Source: Chiloscyllium plagiosum (lineage: Eukaryota). Taken from it: a stretch of DNA of 64,000 nt. The notes under the pieces were generated by a model that worked only from the letters and a program-made list of their open reading frames with translations, did not search any database and was not told where the DNA came from. The DNA lies in NCBI RefSeq assembly GCF_004010195.1, contig NC_057734.1, positions 28,435,176 through 28,499,175 on the forward strand, in the 5' to 3' direction. Every line of letters starts with the position of its first letter. Positions within the stretch are counted from its first letter, which is position 1. The translations under genes were made by a program, and so were the position numbers. Shown here in pieces: positions 8,794-41,339 of this stretch.

Positions 8794-8841
8794 AAAATGT
8801 TATGACCCAATGAAGTTATTTTTGAAGTGCAGAAATTAAAG

Positions 8842-9030
8842 TTTAAAAATCACACAACACCAGGTTATAGTCCAACACGTTTATTTGGAAGCACTAGCTT
8901 TTGGAGCGCTGTTTCTTCATTTGGTGGCTCATCACAACAAGTGCTTCCAAATAAACCTATTGGAATATAACCTGGTGTTGTGAGATATTTAACTTTGTAC
9001 ACCCCAGTCCAACACTGGCATCTTCAAATC
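8842..9030 (+). mobile_element. Fold-back Penelope-derived element, family B
   Basis: Inverted arms aaaaatcacacaacaccaggttatagtccaac / ttggaatataacctggtgttgtgag plus 3' tail; direct repeat cagaaattaaag at 8830-8841 and 9030-9041. Confidence 0.85.
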
Positions 9031-10019
9031 AGAAATTAAAGAGACAGACTCCCATCCTTTTTGCTCCTAGTTGCATTTCAACAGCAGCAGATTTTCTCAT
9101 TTTGCTATCTGTTTCCCACCTGCAGCTTCTGAACAGTAACTGTGTGCAGTCAATAAATGCAAAATGAAAACATTGTGGTTATGTTTGCAGATGTGCAGTG
9201 ATTGTTCATTGTTACAATTTTGTCACCACTTGGATTGTTCCTAGATGCTGTCAATGTCCATGAAAGTTTTGGAGCATATGAACGGCAGTCCTCCTCCAAA
9301 CTGATCAAAAGGTAAAAAATAAAATGCACCTATACACTAACTTTCATGATCTAAGCTGTCCAAAGGTGCATTACAATCAATTAATTACTTTAGAAGTGCA
9401 ATTATTAGTGTAATGTAGAAAACACCAATATCATACAGAGCATTACCAGTAGGTCATTTTTCAACTGCCACTGTTTTAAAATTAATTGTGCCTTCAATTT
9501 ATCTTTATTAGCCATGTATGTTGGTACTGTTCTGTTGTTATCAGAAAAGCTTGCTTGCCAACGCAAAGATCAGTGGTTTCCTTCACAACATTCACTAGAA
9601 CAGCAGTCATTTGTCCATGTGCTGATGTCTTTAACGCATTTTCAAGCTGCTCCTGGAACCTGATCTGGTTGTGATGATCAACCAGTAATGATCTTCCCAC
9701 TCTTGCATGGTTGTAAATATTTAGCCCATGCCTCTGAGAATTTAACCAACCTCATTGAGATGTTCTTGAAACCTTTGCCATTGATTTATGTGACTCAGTG
9801 CAACGAGTGGCTGCATTTTCACTGTGGTGAACACTGTTCCTATTGTTTTGGTTCCATTTATCCAAGCAAGGAATTAAACAGCATCACCTTTTCTAGCGAG
9901 AATATATCACCATGGAAAACTCTTGACATAACTACCAGATCTGCCAGCATCTGCGCAAAGAGTTAATCAAGGAAGAGCAGCTTGTCTTTCATTTTATAGC
10001 TGTCTGTGCTCAACATTAT

Positions 10020-14424: not shown

Positions 14425-15760
14425 ACAGAGTCATAGATTAATAAAGGTCTGCAGCAGAGAAAAAGACTGTTAGGCTCATCAGGTCTGTGCCAGTTAAAAA
14501 CAACCACCCAACCACTATTATCCCATTTTCTAGCACTTTACCCAGCCTTGTACGTCTGGGTATCGTAACAGCATGTCTAAATATTCCTTCAAAGTAATGA
14601 GGGCTTCTGCCTGGACCACCCTTACAGGCAGTGAGTTCCAGATTCCCACCACCCTTGAATGAAAAAAAATTCCTCACATCCCCTCTAAACTACGTGCCTC
14701 TTCTCTTAAATCTATGCCCCTGATTACTGATCCCTCCACCACTGAATAAAGTTTCTCCCTATCTACCCTGTCAAAGCCCGTCATAACTTTGATAAATCTG
14801 AATTGCGTCCCCCACCCCCGGGTTTGCTCTGCTCCATGGAAAACAACCCTAGTCTATCCGATCTCTCTTTGTAACTTAAATTCTCCAGGCTAGGCAACAT
14901 CCTGCTCAATCGCCTCTGTAACCTCTCCAGTGCAATCGCAATACTCCTACAATGTGGATTTCAGAACTGCATACAATACTCCAGCTGTGGCTTAACTAAC
15001 TATTGATACAGTTCCAGCATAACCTTCTTGTTCTTAAACACAGTGCCTTGGCCAATATTGGCATCTATCCCATATGCATACCACGGTCCCTCTGATCTTT
15101 GGTGCTTTCCAGGCCCTGCCATTCATCATGTATTCCTTTGCCTTGTTTGTCCTGACCAAGTGCATCATCTCACATTTATCTGGTTTGAATTCCACTTGCC
15201 ACTGATCAGCCCATCAGACTAGCCTATCTACATCCTCCTGTAATCTAAGGCTATCCTCCTCCCTATTTACCATCCCACTCATTTTTGTAAGACCCGTGAA
15301 CTTACTGATCAACTGTCCTACAATCAAGTCTTTATCATGTATATATCTGTACACTTTTAAAGAGCAAGGGCCCCAACAATGGTTCCTGTGGAGCCCCACT
15401 GGACATAAGCATCCTGTCACAAAATCACCCACATCCCTGACCATCATATTCTGCTTTTTGAAAGTTAGTCAATTCTGTAACCAACTTGCCAAATTTCCTT
15501 GCCAAAGCTCTTCCCTTTGTTATCAATCTTGCACACAGGACCTTGTCAAATGCCTTGATAAAGTCCAAGCAGACTAAGTTGAATGTATTGCCCTCATCTA
15601 TACACCTGGTTACCTCTTTAACAACTTATTCGGCATCTCTGTTATTTCCTTCTTGCCTCACTCAGTAGGCTGGGATACATTCCATCTGGCACTGGGAGAT
15701 TTATCTATGTCTAAACCTCCAGACCACTTAGAACCTGCCCTTGCTAACTTCTTTCAGTAA
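14425..15760 (-). mobile_element. Old CR1 LINE (RT to 3' UTR)
   Basis: Minus-strand ORFs LISKFTGLTKMSGMVNREEDSLRLQEDVDRLV and MRNFFS; CR1 RT similarity. Confidence 0.85.
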
Positions 15761-22775: not shown

Positions 22776-24419
22776 AAGATGAAAAATGATTAAGTTAGGT
22801 TTCCAACAATGCAACCTTATAGCACAAGGTAAATGGTTAGACTGCAGGTATTCACTACAAGTATGGAGCAGAAGCAATTACTCAGTTCATTTGAAGTGAA
22901 GCCTGATTTTACAAAACAAGGAGAGTTAAGCAAGGCACTTTTCCGCTCACTAGTAATGTTAAAATATGCCTTAAAATACCATCAAATATCTGTTCTCATA
23001 AATCAAAACTTCTTCATCAACAGAATGTGGGGACCTCAAATCAAAACCCAGCTGCTTTGTTATGAGCAATCCTTCTGCCCGGTTTAACATCTTCCCTTTG
23101 GGACCACATATTAAAGACAAAGCTAATGTCCTTTAGGTAAAAAAGCTTGCCACTGTTGCCTAGTCCAGGACACATGTAACTCCAGACCCACAGCTGCAGT
23201 TGTCTAAAAGGGCTTATAAACTTAAAAAACTGAAGAAGCACAAAACTCCAACAACCCAACTAACATCAGCTTAGGAATTGGAAATGACAAAGGCACACCC
23301 TGCCTGCAGAGACAACCTCACTAACATTTGGGACTTTGCCAAATTTGAGGAAGCTGTCCTATAGACAGGTCAAGTAACTGCCCCCATTACTATACTGATC
23401 AATTATTACCTCACAGCCACACAGCCAAAGTCCCCGATCCCTCAACCGTCCCATGTCTGTGCTCTCTCATCAGTAGGATAGATCCACCAAGGGAAATGGC
23501 AACATGATATAAAGGTAGTCTTCAACATTGGCTCTGAACACCATCAGGTTTCATGACAAACACATGCAAGAAAACTGCATATTGCTACCACCTTTCCACA
23601 GCAGCAGCAACAATAAGGTGCCAACTTGGTGAAAGTACAATACAGGATTAGGTACATGATAAAAATGAGAAGCAGCATGTCACAGATGGACCTAAATGAC
23701 CCACTACCAACAAACCAAACCGAAGCCCTGCAGACCTGATACATTCAGTCATGAATTAGCGAAAGAGGCTCCATGTATATATCCCAATTCTCAATGATAG
23801 GGGAGGCCAGCTAATCAGTGCAAGAAGCAAGGTTGAAGCATTTGCAGCCATTTTCAGCCAGAGATGCCCAGTCACCTCACAGGTTAGAGTCTTCAGCCAA
23901 TTCAGTTCACTGCTCATGATATCAAGAAGTGGCTGAAGACACTGGATGCAAGAAACGAACGGGCCCCGACAATCTCCTAGCTGCATAATTTCCAATTTGT
24001 ATTCCAGTGCAAGAAAGCTAGTCCCCTTCCAATACTGGCACCTCCCTGGTGCGGTTTAAAAATATCCTGTGCACATCAAGCAGATCCAATTCAATCTGGC
24101 CATTTCCAGCTCCAATAGTTTACTCTCAAGCTTTGGCAAAGTGTTGGAAAGATTAATTGACAATGCTATCACAGGGCAGTCACACAGCAATAACTTTCTC
24201 ACTGTTGCTCATTTGGGTTCTGCAATAAAAAAAAAGAAACTTGCTGGGAATATTCCAACAGGTCTTGCAGAATCAGTGGAGGAAACAGGAGTTAACATTA
24301 AGGGCCATGCTTTTTTCAACCAGTCATGATTTGGAGACGCCGGTGTTGGACTGGGGTGGACGAAGTTAAAAATCACACAACACCAGGTTATAGTCCAACA
24401 GGTTTAATTGGAAGCACAC

Positions 24420-24448
24420 TAGCTTTCGGAGCACTGCTCCTTCATCAG
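24420..24448 (-). ncRNA. Minimal hammerhead ribozyme motif (family B)
   Basis: CTGATGA A GGAGC agt GCTCC GAAA GCTA; helix I CAC/GTG. Confidence 0.75.
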
Positions 24449-24466
24449 GTGGTTGTGGACAACCAC

Positions 24467-24495
24467 CTGATGAAGGAGCAGCACTCCGAAAGCTA
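24467..24495 (+). ncRNA. Minimal hammerhead ribozyme motif (family B)
   Basis: CTGATGA A GGAG cagca CTCC GAAA GCTA; helix I CAC/GTG. Confidence 0.75.
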
Positions 24496-26379
24496 GTGCT
24501 TCCAATTAAACCTGTTGGACTATAACCTGGTGTTGTGTGATTTTTTTTAACTTTTTCAACCTTGATTTAGATGTTCTTATAGTCTAAACTGAAATGTGAA
24601 TGTTTTAAAGATCTGAAGTGTGATTGCCCTGGAGATGAAGGTTGTATGCACTGGGTAACATTAAGGACTGTGAGCAAAAGTGAAGTCAATGGGAATCAGG
24701 TGAAACTCTTCACAGAATGAATTGACACCTAACACAAAGGGAGGTGATTGTAGCTGTTAGAGACCAATCATCTACATCTCAGAGTATCACTGTCAGAGGT
24801 CCAGGCTCAACTGCTGCTTCATCAATGACACTCCCTGCAACAGAAGGTAAGAAGTGAAGATGTTTGTTGATGACTGCAAGATTTTCAGCACCATTTGTAA
24901 CTCTTCAGATACTGAACCTAAATTTGCCCATATGCAGCAAGCCCTAACAACATTCAGTCATGGGCTGATAAATGACAAGTAGCTTCACAAGTGCTAGGCA
25001 TCGACCATGTCCTGAAAGAGAAATCTAACCATTTTCAGTATAGTTATTAATCAATGAATCTGTCACCATGCACATCTTATGGTTTATAATTGACCAGAAA
25101 CTTACTTGAACCAGCCATGAACATAATATTGGGTCAGAGGCTGTGGATAGTCAACTCCCTACTGCACAAAGCCATTGAGAAGGTCTAAGTCAACTCTCCA
25201 CTTATCTGGATGAATGTAGCTTTAAAAACACAAACAAAGCTGAACATCATCCAGCAAAATGTAGGCTGCTTGATCAGCACTCTAGTTAACAACTTAAACA
25301 TTCACTCCCTACACACCCAGCACAGAGCAACAGCACTGCACACCTCTACAAAATGCACTACGGCAACTCACTATGCCTTGCTTGAGAGCTGCTTCCAACC
25401 CCACAACCTTCATCCAGCACAAAGGTAGCAGCTGGTTGGAAGCACCATGATCTGCATGTTCCCATCCCAACCCCAAGTCATGCACCTTCCTGGTTTGGAA
25501 CAACATTGCCATTCCTTCATTGTCACTGAGTCAAGAATGTGTAACACCACCCCAAACAGCCATATTGAAAGCCTGACACCATATGGACAGCAATGGTTCA
25601 AGAGAATGCTCAGAACCATTAACTCAAAAGCAATTAGGGATGGGCATCAATGCCTTTCTACAGGGATCAAATAGGAATGTGAGACTGACAGAGAGCTGGA
25701 AAGGACATGATGGGCCAAATATCTTGTGACTGACATTAATCCTATGAAAGATTAAAAAAAAAGATGGTCAACAATTAAGATTTAACCATGTCATGGCCTC
25801 ATCAAACATCCACAGTAAATAATCAATGGATAGTGCATTTGCCAAATAAATCATCAGCCATGTTGTGAACACTTCAAAAAAATACTGAATACAATATCCA
25901 AAATTGTTAGCAATAACCTGGGAGAGTTACATGGAATTAAACACTGAGCGACACACTGGCCTCAAGTTAAATTAAATATGCCATGCTTTATAACTGAAGA
26001 AAATTGATCAAAGTTCTGATATGTGTTCATCTTACAATTAGCAGCTTGAATATATATTCACAGTTTATCAGGAAAACAAGCTTTTTGAAAGTAAATGTTG
26101 ATTTTGGAACAAGAAAAGAAATAATTGCAAGCTAGTGTAAGAACAATTAACAGTATGACAGCTGATTTCAATGGAGCAGACACTGGAACTGAGCCAGATC
26201 AATTAGAACCAAAGGGTCATGGGAGACAGGCAGCAAATACAATTCAGAAGCAGGCTGAACACAAAAAGTTTAAAATGGAGGAGAAAAAAAGAAAAGAGGA
26301 GAAACAAAGAGAGATTATGAAAAGAGACTGGCAACTAACATAAAGGAAATCCCAAAGTTTTCTAAAGCCATATGAATAA

Positions 26380-26580: not shown

Positions 26581-27771
26581 ATAATAATAAATAATGTGTG
26601 GCGAAAAGAGAAGTAGGTTTGATTAAGGGTCAAAATGAGAATACACACATAGCAGCACAGAGTGTGGCTGAGGTATGAAATTAATGCTTTGCATCTGTTT
26701 TTTTTTAACCAAGGAAGCAGATGCTGTGTGATAGAGGAGGAAATTCAGTCATTAAAAAGCTTCAAAACTGATAAGAAGGTGAAATTGGTTTGACAAGGCA
26801 TCAGGACCATGTGAGATGCATCCCAGGTTACTAGGGAGGTAAGAGTACAAATTGCAGAATCACAGGCCATATTTTTTTCATTGTTCCTTGGACTCAGTGT
26901 GAGAACTGGAAAGTTGCAAAAGTTGTCCCCTAGTCTCAAAAGGTGCTTGTATAAGCCAAAAAACTACACACAAGTCAGTTTAATTTTGGTGATGAGCAAA
27001 CTTCTAGAAACAATATTTTGGGATAGAATTTACAATCATATGGATAACGTTCATTAATAAGGGAAAGTCAGTGTGGGTTTTTTTAAGGGAAAACCACGTT
27101 TAACTTAATTGCTGAAGTTTTTTTCAAGAGCTAACAGAATAGGTAATATTGTCATGCACTGTGGCTAAAGATGAACTGCTGGATATACTGTGCCTATATT
27201 TCCTATAGGAATTTGGTAAGGTGCTCCTTCAAAACTTATTGTGGAAAATGAGAACTCATGCTGTAAGCGATAACATCTTGGCTAGAGAATTTGGTAACAA
27301 ACAGGAAACACTTGGCATAAAAATGGATCACTTTCTACTTAGCAAGATGCAATGGGTGCCACAGGATTTAGTGCCAACCTTTTACAATTTTTATCAATGA
27401 TGTAAATGAAGAGACTGAAGGTATGCTGTTAAATTTTCTGATGAATCAAAGGTAGATAGGAAAGTAAGCTTTGAAGGGAAAGGAAATTGCAAAGAGATAT
27501 AGATCGGTGAAGTGAATGGGCAAAGATCTAGAAAATAGACAAAAATGTACAAAATACAGAATTATCTATTTTGATATGAAAAATAAAAAAAAGTTATCTA
27601 AGTGGTGAGAGATTACAGAGTACTGCGATTCTGAGACGTGTTGGTGTCCTAGTGCATGAGTTGCAAAATAGTTAGTATGAACGACAGCAAGTAACTGGGA
27701 AAGTTATGTTTCCATTCTTTTAAAAATCACACAACACAAGGTTATAGTTCAACAGGTTTATTTGGAAGCAC

Positions 27772-27800
27772 TAGCTTTCAGAGCACTGCTCCTTCATCAG
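27772..27800 (-). ncRNA. Minimal hammerhead ribozyme motif (family B)
   Basis: CTGATGA A GGAGC agt GCTCT GAAA GCTA. Confidence 0.7.
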
Positions 27801-27832
27801 GTGGTTGTGGAGTATAAGATCATAAGGACCAC

Positions 27833-27861
27833 CTGATGAAGGAGAAGCGCTCTGAAAGCTA
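27833..27861 (+). ncRNA. Minimal hammerhead ribozyme motif (family B)
   Basis: CTGATGA A GGAG aagcg CTCT GAAA GCTA. Confidence 0.65.
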
Positions 27862-28039
27862 GTGCTTCAAAATAAATCTATTGGACTATAACCTGGCATT
27901 GTGCGATTTTTACATTTGTACACCCCAGTCCAACACCGGCCCTCCACATCACGATAATCATTCATTGGCAGGGAACATCATACACAAATGTCACGGGTTT
28001 ATGCTTTAGCCATGCAGGGCATCAGTGAGGCCACATCAT

Positions 28040-40262: not shown

Positions 40263-41339
40263 AAAAAGGTGCCAAACTGGTGAAGGTACCAAACAGGCCT
40301 ACTTGCAGACCAAACAGCATCAGCAACAAGTGATAGACAAAGCTAAATGATCTCATAACCAGTAGATTAGATCTAAGCTCTGCAGTCCTATCACATCCGG
40401 TCATGAATGGTGGTGGACAATTCAACAATTAGAGAAGGAGGCTTCACAGATATCACCATCCTCAATTATGGAAGAGCCAACCATATCAGTTGCAAAAGAT
40501 AAAGCTGAAGCATTCGCAGCAATCTTCAGCCAGTTGTGCCGTGTGGATGATCCATCTTGACCTCCTCCAGTGACCCCCAGTATCAGACACCAGTGATCAG
40601 CCAATTTGATTCACTCCATGTGATAGCAAGAAACAATTGTAAGTACCGGATACTGCAAAGGCTATGGATCCTGACAACATTCTGGCAACAGTATTGAAGA
40701 CTTGTGCTCCAGAACTTGCTGCTCCCCTAGCCAGGTTGCTCCAATACAGTTACAATACTGGGATCCACCCGACGAAGATGGAAAATTGTCCAGGTACGTC
40801 CTATGCACAAAATGCAAGACAAATCCAACCCGGCCAATTACTTCCCCATCAATTTACTCTCGGTTGTCAGTAAAATGACAGAACGTGTCATCAACGGTGC
40901 TATCAAGCAGCACCCGCTCAGCAATAACCTGTTCAGTGATGCCCAGTTTGGGTTCCACCAGGGCCACTCAGCTCCTGACCTCATTGCAGCTTTGGTTCAA
41001 ACATGGACAAAAGTGCTGGATTCCAGAGGTGAGGTGAGAGTGACAGCCCTTGATATCACATTCGACCAAGTGGGGTATCAAGGAGCCCTCACAAAACTGG
41101 AATCAATGGGTATCACGGGGCAAACTCTCTGCTGGTTGGAACCATACCTGGCACAAAAGAAGATGGTCATGGTTGTTGGAGTTCAGTTACTTCAGCTCCA
41201 GGACATCTCTGCGGGAGTTTCTCAAGGTAGTGTCCTAGGCCCAAACATCTTCAGCTGCTTCATCAATAATCTTCCCTCCATCACAAGGCTAGAAGTGGGG
41301 ATGTTTGCCGATGATTGCACAATGTTCAGCACCATTCAC

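Follow-up and report, generated by a model that had tools for sequence, protein, structure and literature searches.

Head-to-head hairpin copies of a Penelope-like element in Chiloscyllium plagiosum and their likely origin on capped RNA

A stretch of 64,000 nucleotides from Chiloscyllium plagiosum (assembly GCF_004010195.1, contig NC_057734.1, positions 28,435,176 to 28,499,175 of the forward strand; hereafter the window) holds a DNA hairpin with the motif of a minimal hammerhead ribozyme (min-HHR) on each of its strands. An earlier note, made from the letters of the window, took it for a member of a non-coding, retrozyme-like family mobilised by the reverse transcriptase (RT) of a Penelope-like element (PLE). 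The locus raises two questions: what such a hairpin is a copy of, and how two nearly identical arms come to lie head to head. By comparison with longer genomic copies, the window hairpin consists of two short pieces of a PLE placed head to head, each a copy of the 5′ segment, that is, of the pseudo-long terminal repeat (pLTR) and the start of the open reading frame (ORF). The second question is addressed through the ends of the arms across the genome.

The window hairpin and its parent element

A 10-bp direct repeat, TTTTTCAACC, borders the insert at 24312–24321 and again at 24552–24561 (both on the forward strand); the insert is therefore 24322–24551, a correction to the borders of 24323–24553 given earlier, and the flanking repeats, which had been recognised before, are read as a target-site duplication (TSD). 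Within the insert an inverted repeat of 50 bp (24368–24417 and 24496–24545, 100% identical) is followed inwards by one of 40 bp (24417–24456 and 24459–24498, 95% identical), and the two arms differ by a 2-nt indel (GTGTG versus GTG). The spacer between them is the 2 nt already noted, GG at 24457–24458, but the stem is ~92 bp long: the 190 bp of the earlier note is the total length of the hairpin, ~190 nt. The predicted fold has a free energy of −161.7 kcal/mol (z −22), and none of 200 shuffles folded equally well. The element is also asymmetric, a feature that had been overlooked: 24322–24363 is an unpaired 42-nt tail found on one side only.

Positions in the element are numbered with the first C of the hammerhead core (C3) as +1 and the preceding base as 0; beyond +29 there is a 2-nt difference between subfamilies. 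The left arm (24322–24458, reverse strand), which carries the tail (tail+), is a pLTR segment extending from −9, or from −7 plus a 2-nt spacer, to +127. The right arm (24459–24551, forward strand), which lacks it (tail−), extends from A(−7), the putative transcription start, to a putative inner RT start site at about +85. The tail, on the reverse strand, spans the interval between the two putative RT start sites and has the PLE ORF's first two codons at its end.

The left arm is 93% identical over 137 nt to the 5′ pLTR and ORF start of a near-full-length copy, L131. The trinucleotide at 24325–24327 (reverse strand) is the ATG that opens an RT-endonuclease ORF in the longer copies L121, L123, L127 and L130; in L121, L127 and L130 the hammerhead and tail continue straight into this ATG, and the arms are therefore pieces of a pLTR. 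Copies L131 and L132 have the arm in direct orientation at both ends, placing one pLTR upstream and one downstream of the ORF. Walking copies upstream led to a 3′ untranslated region and to an ORF that encodes RT motifs, a CX4CxxC linker and a GIY-YIG region; read directly, L094 has the RT motifs, the linker between RT and endonuclease (EN) and, at the C terminus, GIY-YIG with a CCHH motif. The GIY-YIG region of the parent holds two internal cysteines. Pfam RVT_1 matched the parent ORF at E 6.9e-06, below the cut-off; Pfam returned no GIY-YIG match and nothing for a 130-aa endonuclease piece or a 598-aa frame, and a PDB search returned no match. By the definitions in PMC8557442, which in the part considered here include a CX2-5CxxC linker for Neptune/Nematis-type PLEs, the parent is, on its motifs, an autonomous EN+ PLE of the Neptune/Nematis type.

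The kind of insertion is already known. Accounts of PLEs in PMC3846280 and PMC8557442, in the portions relevant here, describe an inverted 5′-truncated copy, a 30–40-bp tail on one side and a TSD, and the inverted pLTR with one-sided tail and TSD in the window is this structure. That a Penelope RT made the insertion, as the earlier note proposed, is likely; both arms match the pLTR and ORF start of elements with RT and GIY-YIG.

The hairpin population and the ends of its arms

Across the 3.56-Gb genome scanned, the exact core 14-mer has 47,995 copies, against 21 for the reversed control, and a 17-mer downstream of it has 62,254 exact copies; at least 1,810 tight hairpins have both cores exact. 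Pairing of a tail+ with a tail− arm was found in 90 of 94 tight hairpins, and a TSD-like repeat abuts both ends in 62 of 65 callable hairpins compared with 17 of 323 mismatched controls. These repeats vary from 7 to 19 nt, with one mismatch allowed. The centres vary as well: 75 hairpins have 66 types of junction, of which a few recur (4, 3 and 2 copies); three loci of this sample gave no centre match, and 10 of the 75 had no callable ends. Among 383 arms there were no head-to-tail repeats of an HHR unit, and the four same-strand pairs within 450 nt each have an inverted arm between them. Classification as a miniature inverted-repeat or other fold-back DNA transposon was rejected: the ends are asymmetric by ~40 nt and the length of the TSD-like repeat is not fixed.

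Where arms stop was determined from 83 arms, an unbiased sample that the downstream 17-mer picked out within the initial 5 Mb of contig C1 (two more could not be aligned). Position 0 is reached by 58 of them, of which 34 stop in −14..0, most often at −7 (8 arms), and none of the 24 that reach −15 stops in −32..−15 (p = 1.5e-7); a further 25 of the 83 end between +1 and +50. Upstream of the empty zone lies a TATA box. Of 134 long arms, 126 have it at a distance of 38 or 40 from the core, which places A(−7) 30 or 32 nt after it. A(−7) is conserved in 130 of 133 long arms, and the spacer between the TATA box and A(−7) diverges between subfamilies. Exact copies of the TATA-box 14-mer number 21,889, or 46% of the core count, near the 24 of 58 in the sample; the hairpins themselves lack the box. 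The spacing, together with the context TCCA(+1)CW at A(−7), fits the consensus of a Pol II start, and A(−7) is likely to be a capped transcription start. At the predicted HHR cut, no peak of 5′ ends was found: two of the 83 arms stop at +28..+33, a number that leaves room for a small peak. Genome-wide, hairpins centred near the cut number 182 and those centred near the putative start 1,810, counts that come from different search patterns and are not strictly comparable.

The preceding base is G for 42 of the 45 arms whose first base is A(−7), compared with 61 of 135 at other starts (p = 2e-9; counted within the family, leaving out loci L031–L060, which had been picked by their upstream pattern); in the unbiased subset the figures are 5 of 6 and 7 of 32 (p = 0.008). 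The element's own base at −8 is C, so the G does not belong to the element. Tallied by hand in the first 100 genome-ordered rows of 3,563 matches at −7 and of 2,395 at −5, the ratio G:T:A before the start is 66:25:9 at −7 and 33:42:25 at −5 (G versus A, p = 5.5e-5). At 40 G-start loci, only three have a contiguous partner able to template the G, and one is a long arm with a point change. In two solo copies, L365 and L367, the TSD is followed by one extra G and then by A(−7), the G lying outside the TSD. Other retroelements are known to gain an extra G when RT copies the cap. The fixed stop and the extra G are likely to record RT running off the 5′ end of a capped RNA left uncut by the ribozyme. 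In the window copy the junction GG (24457–24458, forward strand) is ambiguous: one or both Gs, standing before the right arm and not templated by the element, are likely cap-derived, or else they belong to the left arm. The new observation is the G-marked pile-up of short arms at A(−7), 30–32 nt past a TATA box; literature searches, which did not cover Repbase, Dfam, older PLE reviews or supplements, found no cap-G or strong-stop reading of PLEs.

Other arrangements occur in the population. The 182 smaller hairpins, which lack the core, are centred on the helix III palindrome (for example L216–L223 and L258–L263); by reading, at least 27 of the 50 listed are joined at AGCT, AAGC or CTAG microhomology and not at the exact cut site. 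At L302 and L358 the partner arm is reduced to about 9–13 nt of inverted tail, joined directly to a G-start arm. L277:1670–3961 and L299:4033–4775 have short inverted arms and a shared TSD-like repeat, with 0.7–2.3 kb of other sequence between, which on its arrangement is a later insertion or captured sequence. At L285 (around C1:3865288–3865443) a 155-nt hairpin-containing unit is duplicated in tandem.

The hammerhead motif and the poly(A) signal

On both strands the element has CUGAUGA-A-stem II-GAAA-GCUA with a CAC/GUG helix I and an AGCU palindrome, just as the earlier note described. The left motif occupies 24417–24451 (reverse strand), its core starting at 24448 and its predicted cut lying at 24420/24419; the right one occupies 24464–24498 (forward strand), with the core from 24467 and the predicted cut at 24495/24496. 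Each has the CUGANGA and GAAA boxes, an extra A after A9, the pair G10.1-C11.1, palindromic 15.2–16.2 and H17, and in sequence both are Penelope-type minimal hammerheads of type I, as had been suggested. Stem II has 5 bp in the left arm and 4 bp in the right; helix I has 3 bp in each. The concern that the partner arm masks the ribozyme is borne out by prediction: the probability of G10.1-C11.1 is <1e-12 in the full transcript of either strand. The self-duplex of helix III is predicted at only −6.0 kcal/mol, and cofolding did not yield an active dimer. A search of the window element against Rfam gave no match at the gathering threshold and no hammerhead match; weak matches of miRNA/snoRNA type at E ≤ 10 were dismissed as generic hairpin matches.

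In 51 unbiased arms the core is still intact in 37. Changes were counted at 17 of 510 core sites and at 86 of 1632 other non-CpG sites, so that the core is not significantly more conserved than its neighbourhood (p = 0.08). Stem II covaries between subfamilies. The third, subfamily C, has two pairs changed on both sides, and 12 covarying cells were counted against 4.6 after shuffling, in a set of 18 hand-picked, related rows that probably holds one event per pair; in the same rows helix I showed no covariation. As read from this alignment, the pattern shows selection on the fold at the level of the family, and the coding parent accounts for it. The compensated stem II of the third subfamily is GAGGC/GCCTC (L310, L315, L330 and others). 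A copy at C4:93904024–93904053 has a different stem, GAGTC/GACTC, and probably belongs to another PLE family. The stem II loop (+14..+16) varies in reverse-complement pairs (GTC/GAC, AGC/GCT, AAT/ATT and GGC/GCC), a pattern that suggests inversion of the loop by template switching.

RNA reads came from a 3′-biased poly(A) single-cell run, of which about 2% was read. On L127:300–1100, 3,026 reads were placed. Loose A-runs follow L127 positions 563 and 566 (+58 and +61) in 382 and 462 reads, respectively, 12–15 nt after ATTAAA (AATAAA in other subfamilies); the genomic sequence of L127 has no A-run at this position, and read depth on the main strand falls there from 1,120 to 209. The pLTR poly(A) signal (L127:546–566) works: depending on the subfamily it reads ATTAAA or AATAAA, poly(A) is added at +58..+61, and GT-rich sequence lies downstream. 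The reads stem from many genomic copies, and they do not show the source locus. A second sequencing run gave no reads on L127. The window element has ATTAAA in both arms: at 24403–24408 (reverse strand), a site whose L127 homologue has poly(A) behind it in the reads, and at 24505–24510 (forward strand), with GT-rich sequence downstream. The site of poly(A) addition is upstream of both putative RT start sites.

The window contains further copies and older repeats. A 30-mer of the element has four matches in the window and none in 100 shuffles. A second hairpin insertion (27720–27954) has its tail on the right, a spacer of the 27-nt class and one arm that reaches −19; a third (8834–9031), also with its tail on the right, has lost one hammerhead core. 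Both flanks, 24062–24218 and 24674–24916, align collinearly with a single old repeat in L299 (about 69%); the window hairpin thus lies within an older repeat. Decayed RT fragments of the long interspersed nuclear element (LINE) type lie at 15112–15619 (reverse strand) and 40863–41315 (forward strand), as found by tblastn with an RVT_1 frame from L091.

How the hairpins may arise

We put at roughly three in four the probability that a short-copy hairpin is made in a single event, which starts from capped RNA and ends in an inactive product. The TATA box at −37/−39 would drive a capped RNA from A(−7), and the element protein would nick both target strands about 10 nt apart; one strand would prime RT at about +125 of the RNA and the other at about +85. 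Each cDNA would run to the cap, often adding a C opposite it, or would stop earlier, and the cDNA 3′ ends would be joined at microhomologies or across short templated inserts, so that the centre varies. Such a product would have no TATA box and its RNA would fold as one long duplex masking both ribozymes; it is therefore likely to be dead on arrival. This fits results in vitro: for the Anolis Poseidon element PAc, the parts of PMC11167929 considered here report that both target strands are cut and extended, that two internal RT start sites bound the tail and that the HHR just upstream need not cleave. The element described here differs in being of Neptune/Nematis type, with an HHR wholly upstream of the ATG, and the evidence for it is genomic; inverted repeats, transcription start and cap are not addressed in those parts of the Poseidon account.

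Head-to-head PLE repeats have been explained otherwise, by self-priming on an antisense template (PMC3846280, in the section concerned): a single cDNA or RNA would fold back on itself and be copied. Concordance between arms is what such copying would leave. The arms of one hairpin share rare variants (21 versus 2.3 by permutation, in 13 of 73 hairpins, 21 of 94 having been dropped for coverage or tail class), they agree at two subfamily markers (40 of 46 and 71 of 75), and the helix III-centred hairpins, many joined at microhomologies, fit a fold-back too. However, at 10 of the 40 G-start loci the tail− arm reaches −7 and its tail+ partner starts after position 0: each arm holds sequence that the other lacks, and therefore neither was copied from the other. 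The extra G stands on tail− (30) and tail+ (12) arms alike, 28 of 29 pairs among the 40 loci are tail+/tail−, solo TSD-flanked arms end at either +85 or +125, and many long TSD-flanked pairs have very unequal arms; nor does an antisense template give any reason to stop at a start defined by the TATA box of the sense strand. Fold-back is in our view unlikely, and shared RNA, a shared source locus or later conversion could account for the concordance. We hold it quite unlikely, too, that the arms are randomly 5′-truncated copies of the 3′ pLTR, in which a pause of RT or a hot spot of microhomology, followed by trimming of the palindrome centre, produced the pile-up at −7 independently of any transcription start. 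Truncation at the 5′ end is the norm for PLEs (PMC8557442, as far as considered here), and the 25 arms that end between +1 and +50 agree with it; neither a pause nor a hot spot predicts the empty zone at −32..−15, the fixed TATA spacing or, in solo copies, an extra G exactly at −7. The earlier note's own proposal, a non-coding hairpin family that propagates itself, has two working ribozymes and is moved by Penelope RT, could draw on the 1,810 or more tight hairpins with both cores exact, the few recurring junctions and the covariation of stem II. We consider it very improbable, and as a family moving as a unit it is not supported: the arms are pieces of a coding PLE, junctions come in 66 types among 75, the hairpin has no TATA box and head-to-tail units are absent; TSDs lie directly against both ends and no flanking sequence has travelled with the hairpin, the ribozyme fold is predicted to be masked, the cores of copies are not significantly protected, and the covariation is accounted for by the coding parent.

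Twin priming on capped RNA has points against it as well. The unbiased sample is drawn from 5 Mb at the beginning of one contig, its 5′ ends, read off local alignments, may be wrong by a few bases, and the start at −7 and its cap are deduced from DNA, which also favours random truncation. The RNA reads show no peak of molecule starts on L127 in the one 3′-biased library, whose species may not be that of the genome. The partner arm is G-rich, so that part of the G excess may come from microhomology choice, and the GG of the window copy can be read as templated, as −8/−9 of the left arm. The shared variants, together with arm lengths that look correlated (30 pairs, of which one is short with long and three long with long; by reading, with incomplete detection of partners), need a common RNA or source locus and also fit fold-back. 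Conversely, the two arms often disagree, at −3 in 23 of 60 and in the stem II loop in 20–25 of 73, which twin priming leaves unexplained.

A wider proposal, that PLEs replicate like a target-primed retrovirus, is tentative and to us rather doubtful. The mRNA would run from the capped −7 to poly(A) at about +60 of the downstream pLTR, and the RT start sites (+85 and +125) would therefore be present only near the RNA 5′ end. RT would make strong-stop cDNA on both target strands, and only by a jump to the redundant 3′ end could it go on to copy the ORF and restore a promoter-bearing pLTR; hairpins would be failed jumps, and the hammerhead would be unused on these templates. In retroviruses and long terminal repeat (LTR) retrotransposons, minus-strand strong-stop DNA forms as RT runs off the capped 5′ end. 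By analogy, RT here would be primed ~90–135 nt from a capped 5′ end, with an R-like terminal redundancy from −7 to about +60. The priming would differ, by nicked target DNA on both strands and without tRNA primer or integrase: this is an analogy and not membership. Traces of strand transfer were not found (no poly(A)-containing or tandem −7..+60 duplications), and long arms are not enriched for G at −8 (0 of 133; 1 of 40), which gives the jump no support. Speculatively, long copies might need such a jump, read-through RNA or circles.

Known systems share much with these hairpins. Complex insertions of EN+ PLEs (PMC3846280 and PMC8557442, in the descriptions considered) have head-to-head inverted pLTR pieces, a TSD of ~10 bp, a parent with RT and C-terminal GIY-YIG, and a one-sided tail of ~40 nt overlapping the ORF start; arms that are both minimal, with a sharp G-marked end 30–32 nt past a TATA box, are not described in those passages. 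The min-HHRs of metazoan PLE pLTRs, as presented in part of PMC4209133, have the same core boxes, extra nucleotide 9/10.1, G10.1-C11.1 and palindromic 15.2–16.2, occur in thousands of mostly truncated copies and form opposite-strand pairs ~100–700 bp apart. Compared with the Schistosoma family of that account, the motif here is shorter (helix II 4–5 bp, helix I 3 bp); and whereas its cleave-and-circularise model favours ends at the cut site for linear templates, no enrichment at the cut site was seen. Non-LTR retrozymes (PMC7229834; bioRxiv 10.64898/2026.07.22.740005; both in part) are likewise small, non-coding and PLE-related, with a type-I HHR, but they are head-to-tail tandem repeats expressed as circular RNAs, whereas the pair here is inverted and has a minimal HHR and a junction that varies.

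The window element itself is an ordinary by-product of a PLE. The population bears on three matters: the inverted repeats of PLEs, the regeneration of pLTRs and the cutting of min-HHRs in vivo. For the second, the part of PMC2377424 considered here saw 'no obvious mechanism'; it describes a TATA-less internal promoter for Drosophila Penelope, a promoter type that differs from that of the present element, and PMC8557442, in a passage on the PLE cycle, speaks of 'still undefined features'. For short copies at least, antisense self-priming and circular templates agree less well with the G-marked stop, the two cDNAs per insertion and the lack of a stop at the cut site than does twin priming from the target on RNA that is capped and uncleaved. 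Finally, with a poly(A) signal on both strands of the hairpin, thousands of copies could end host transcripts.

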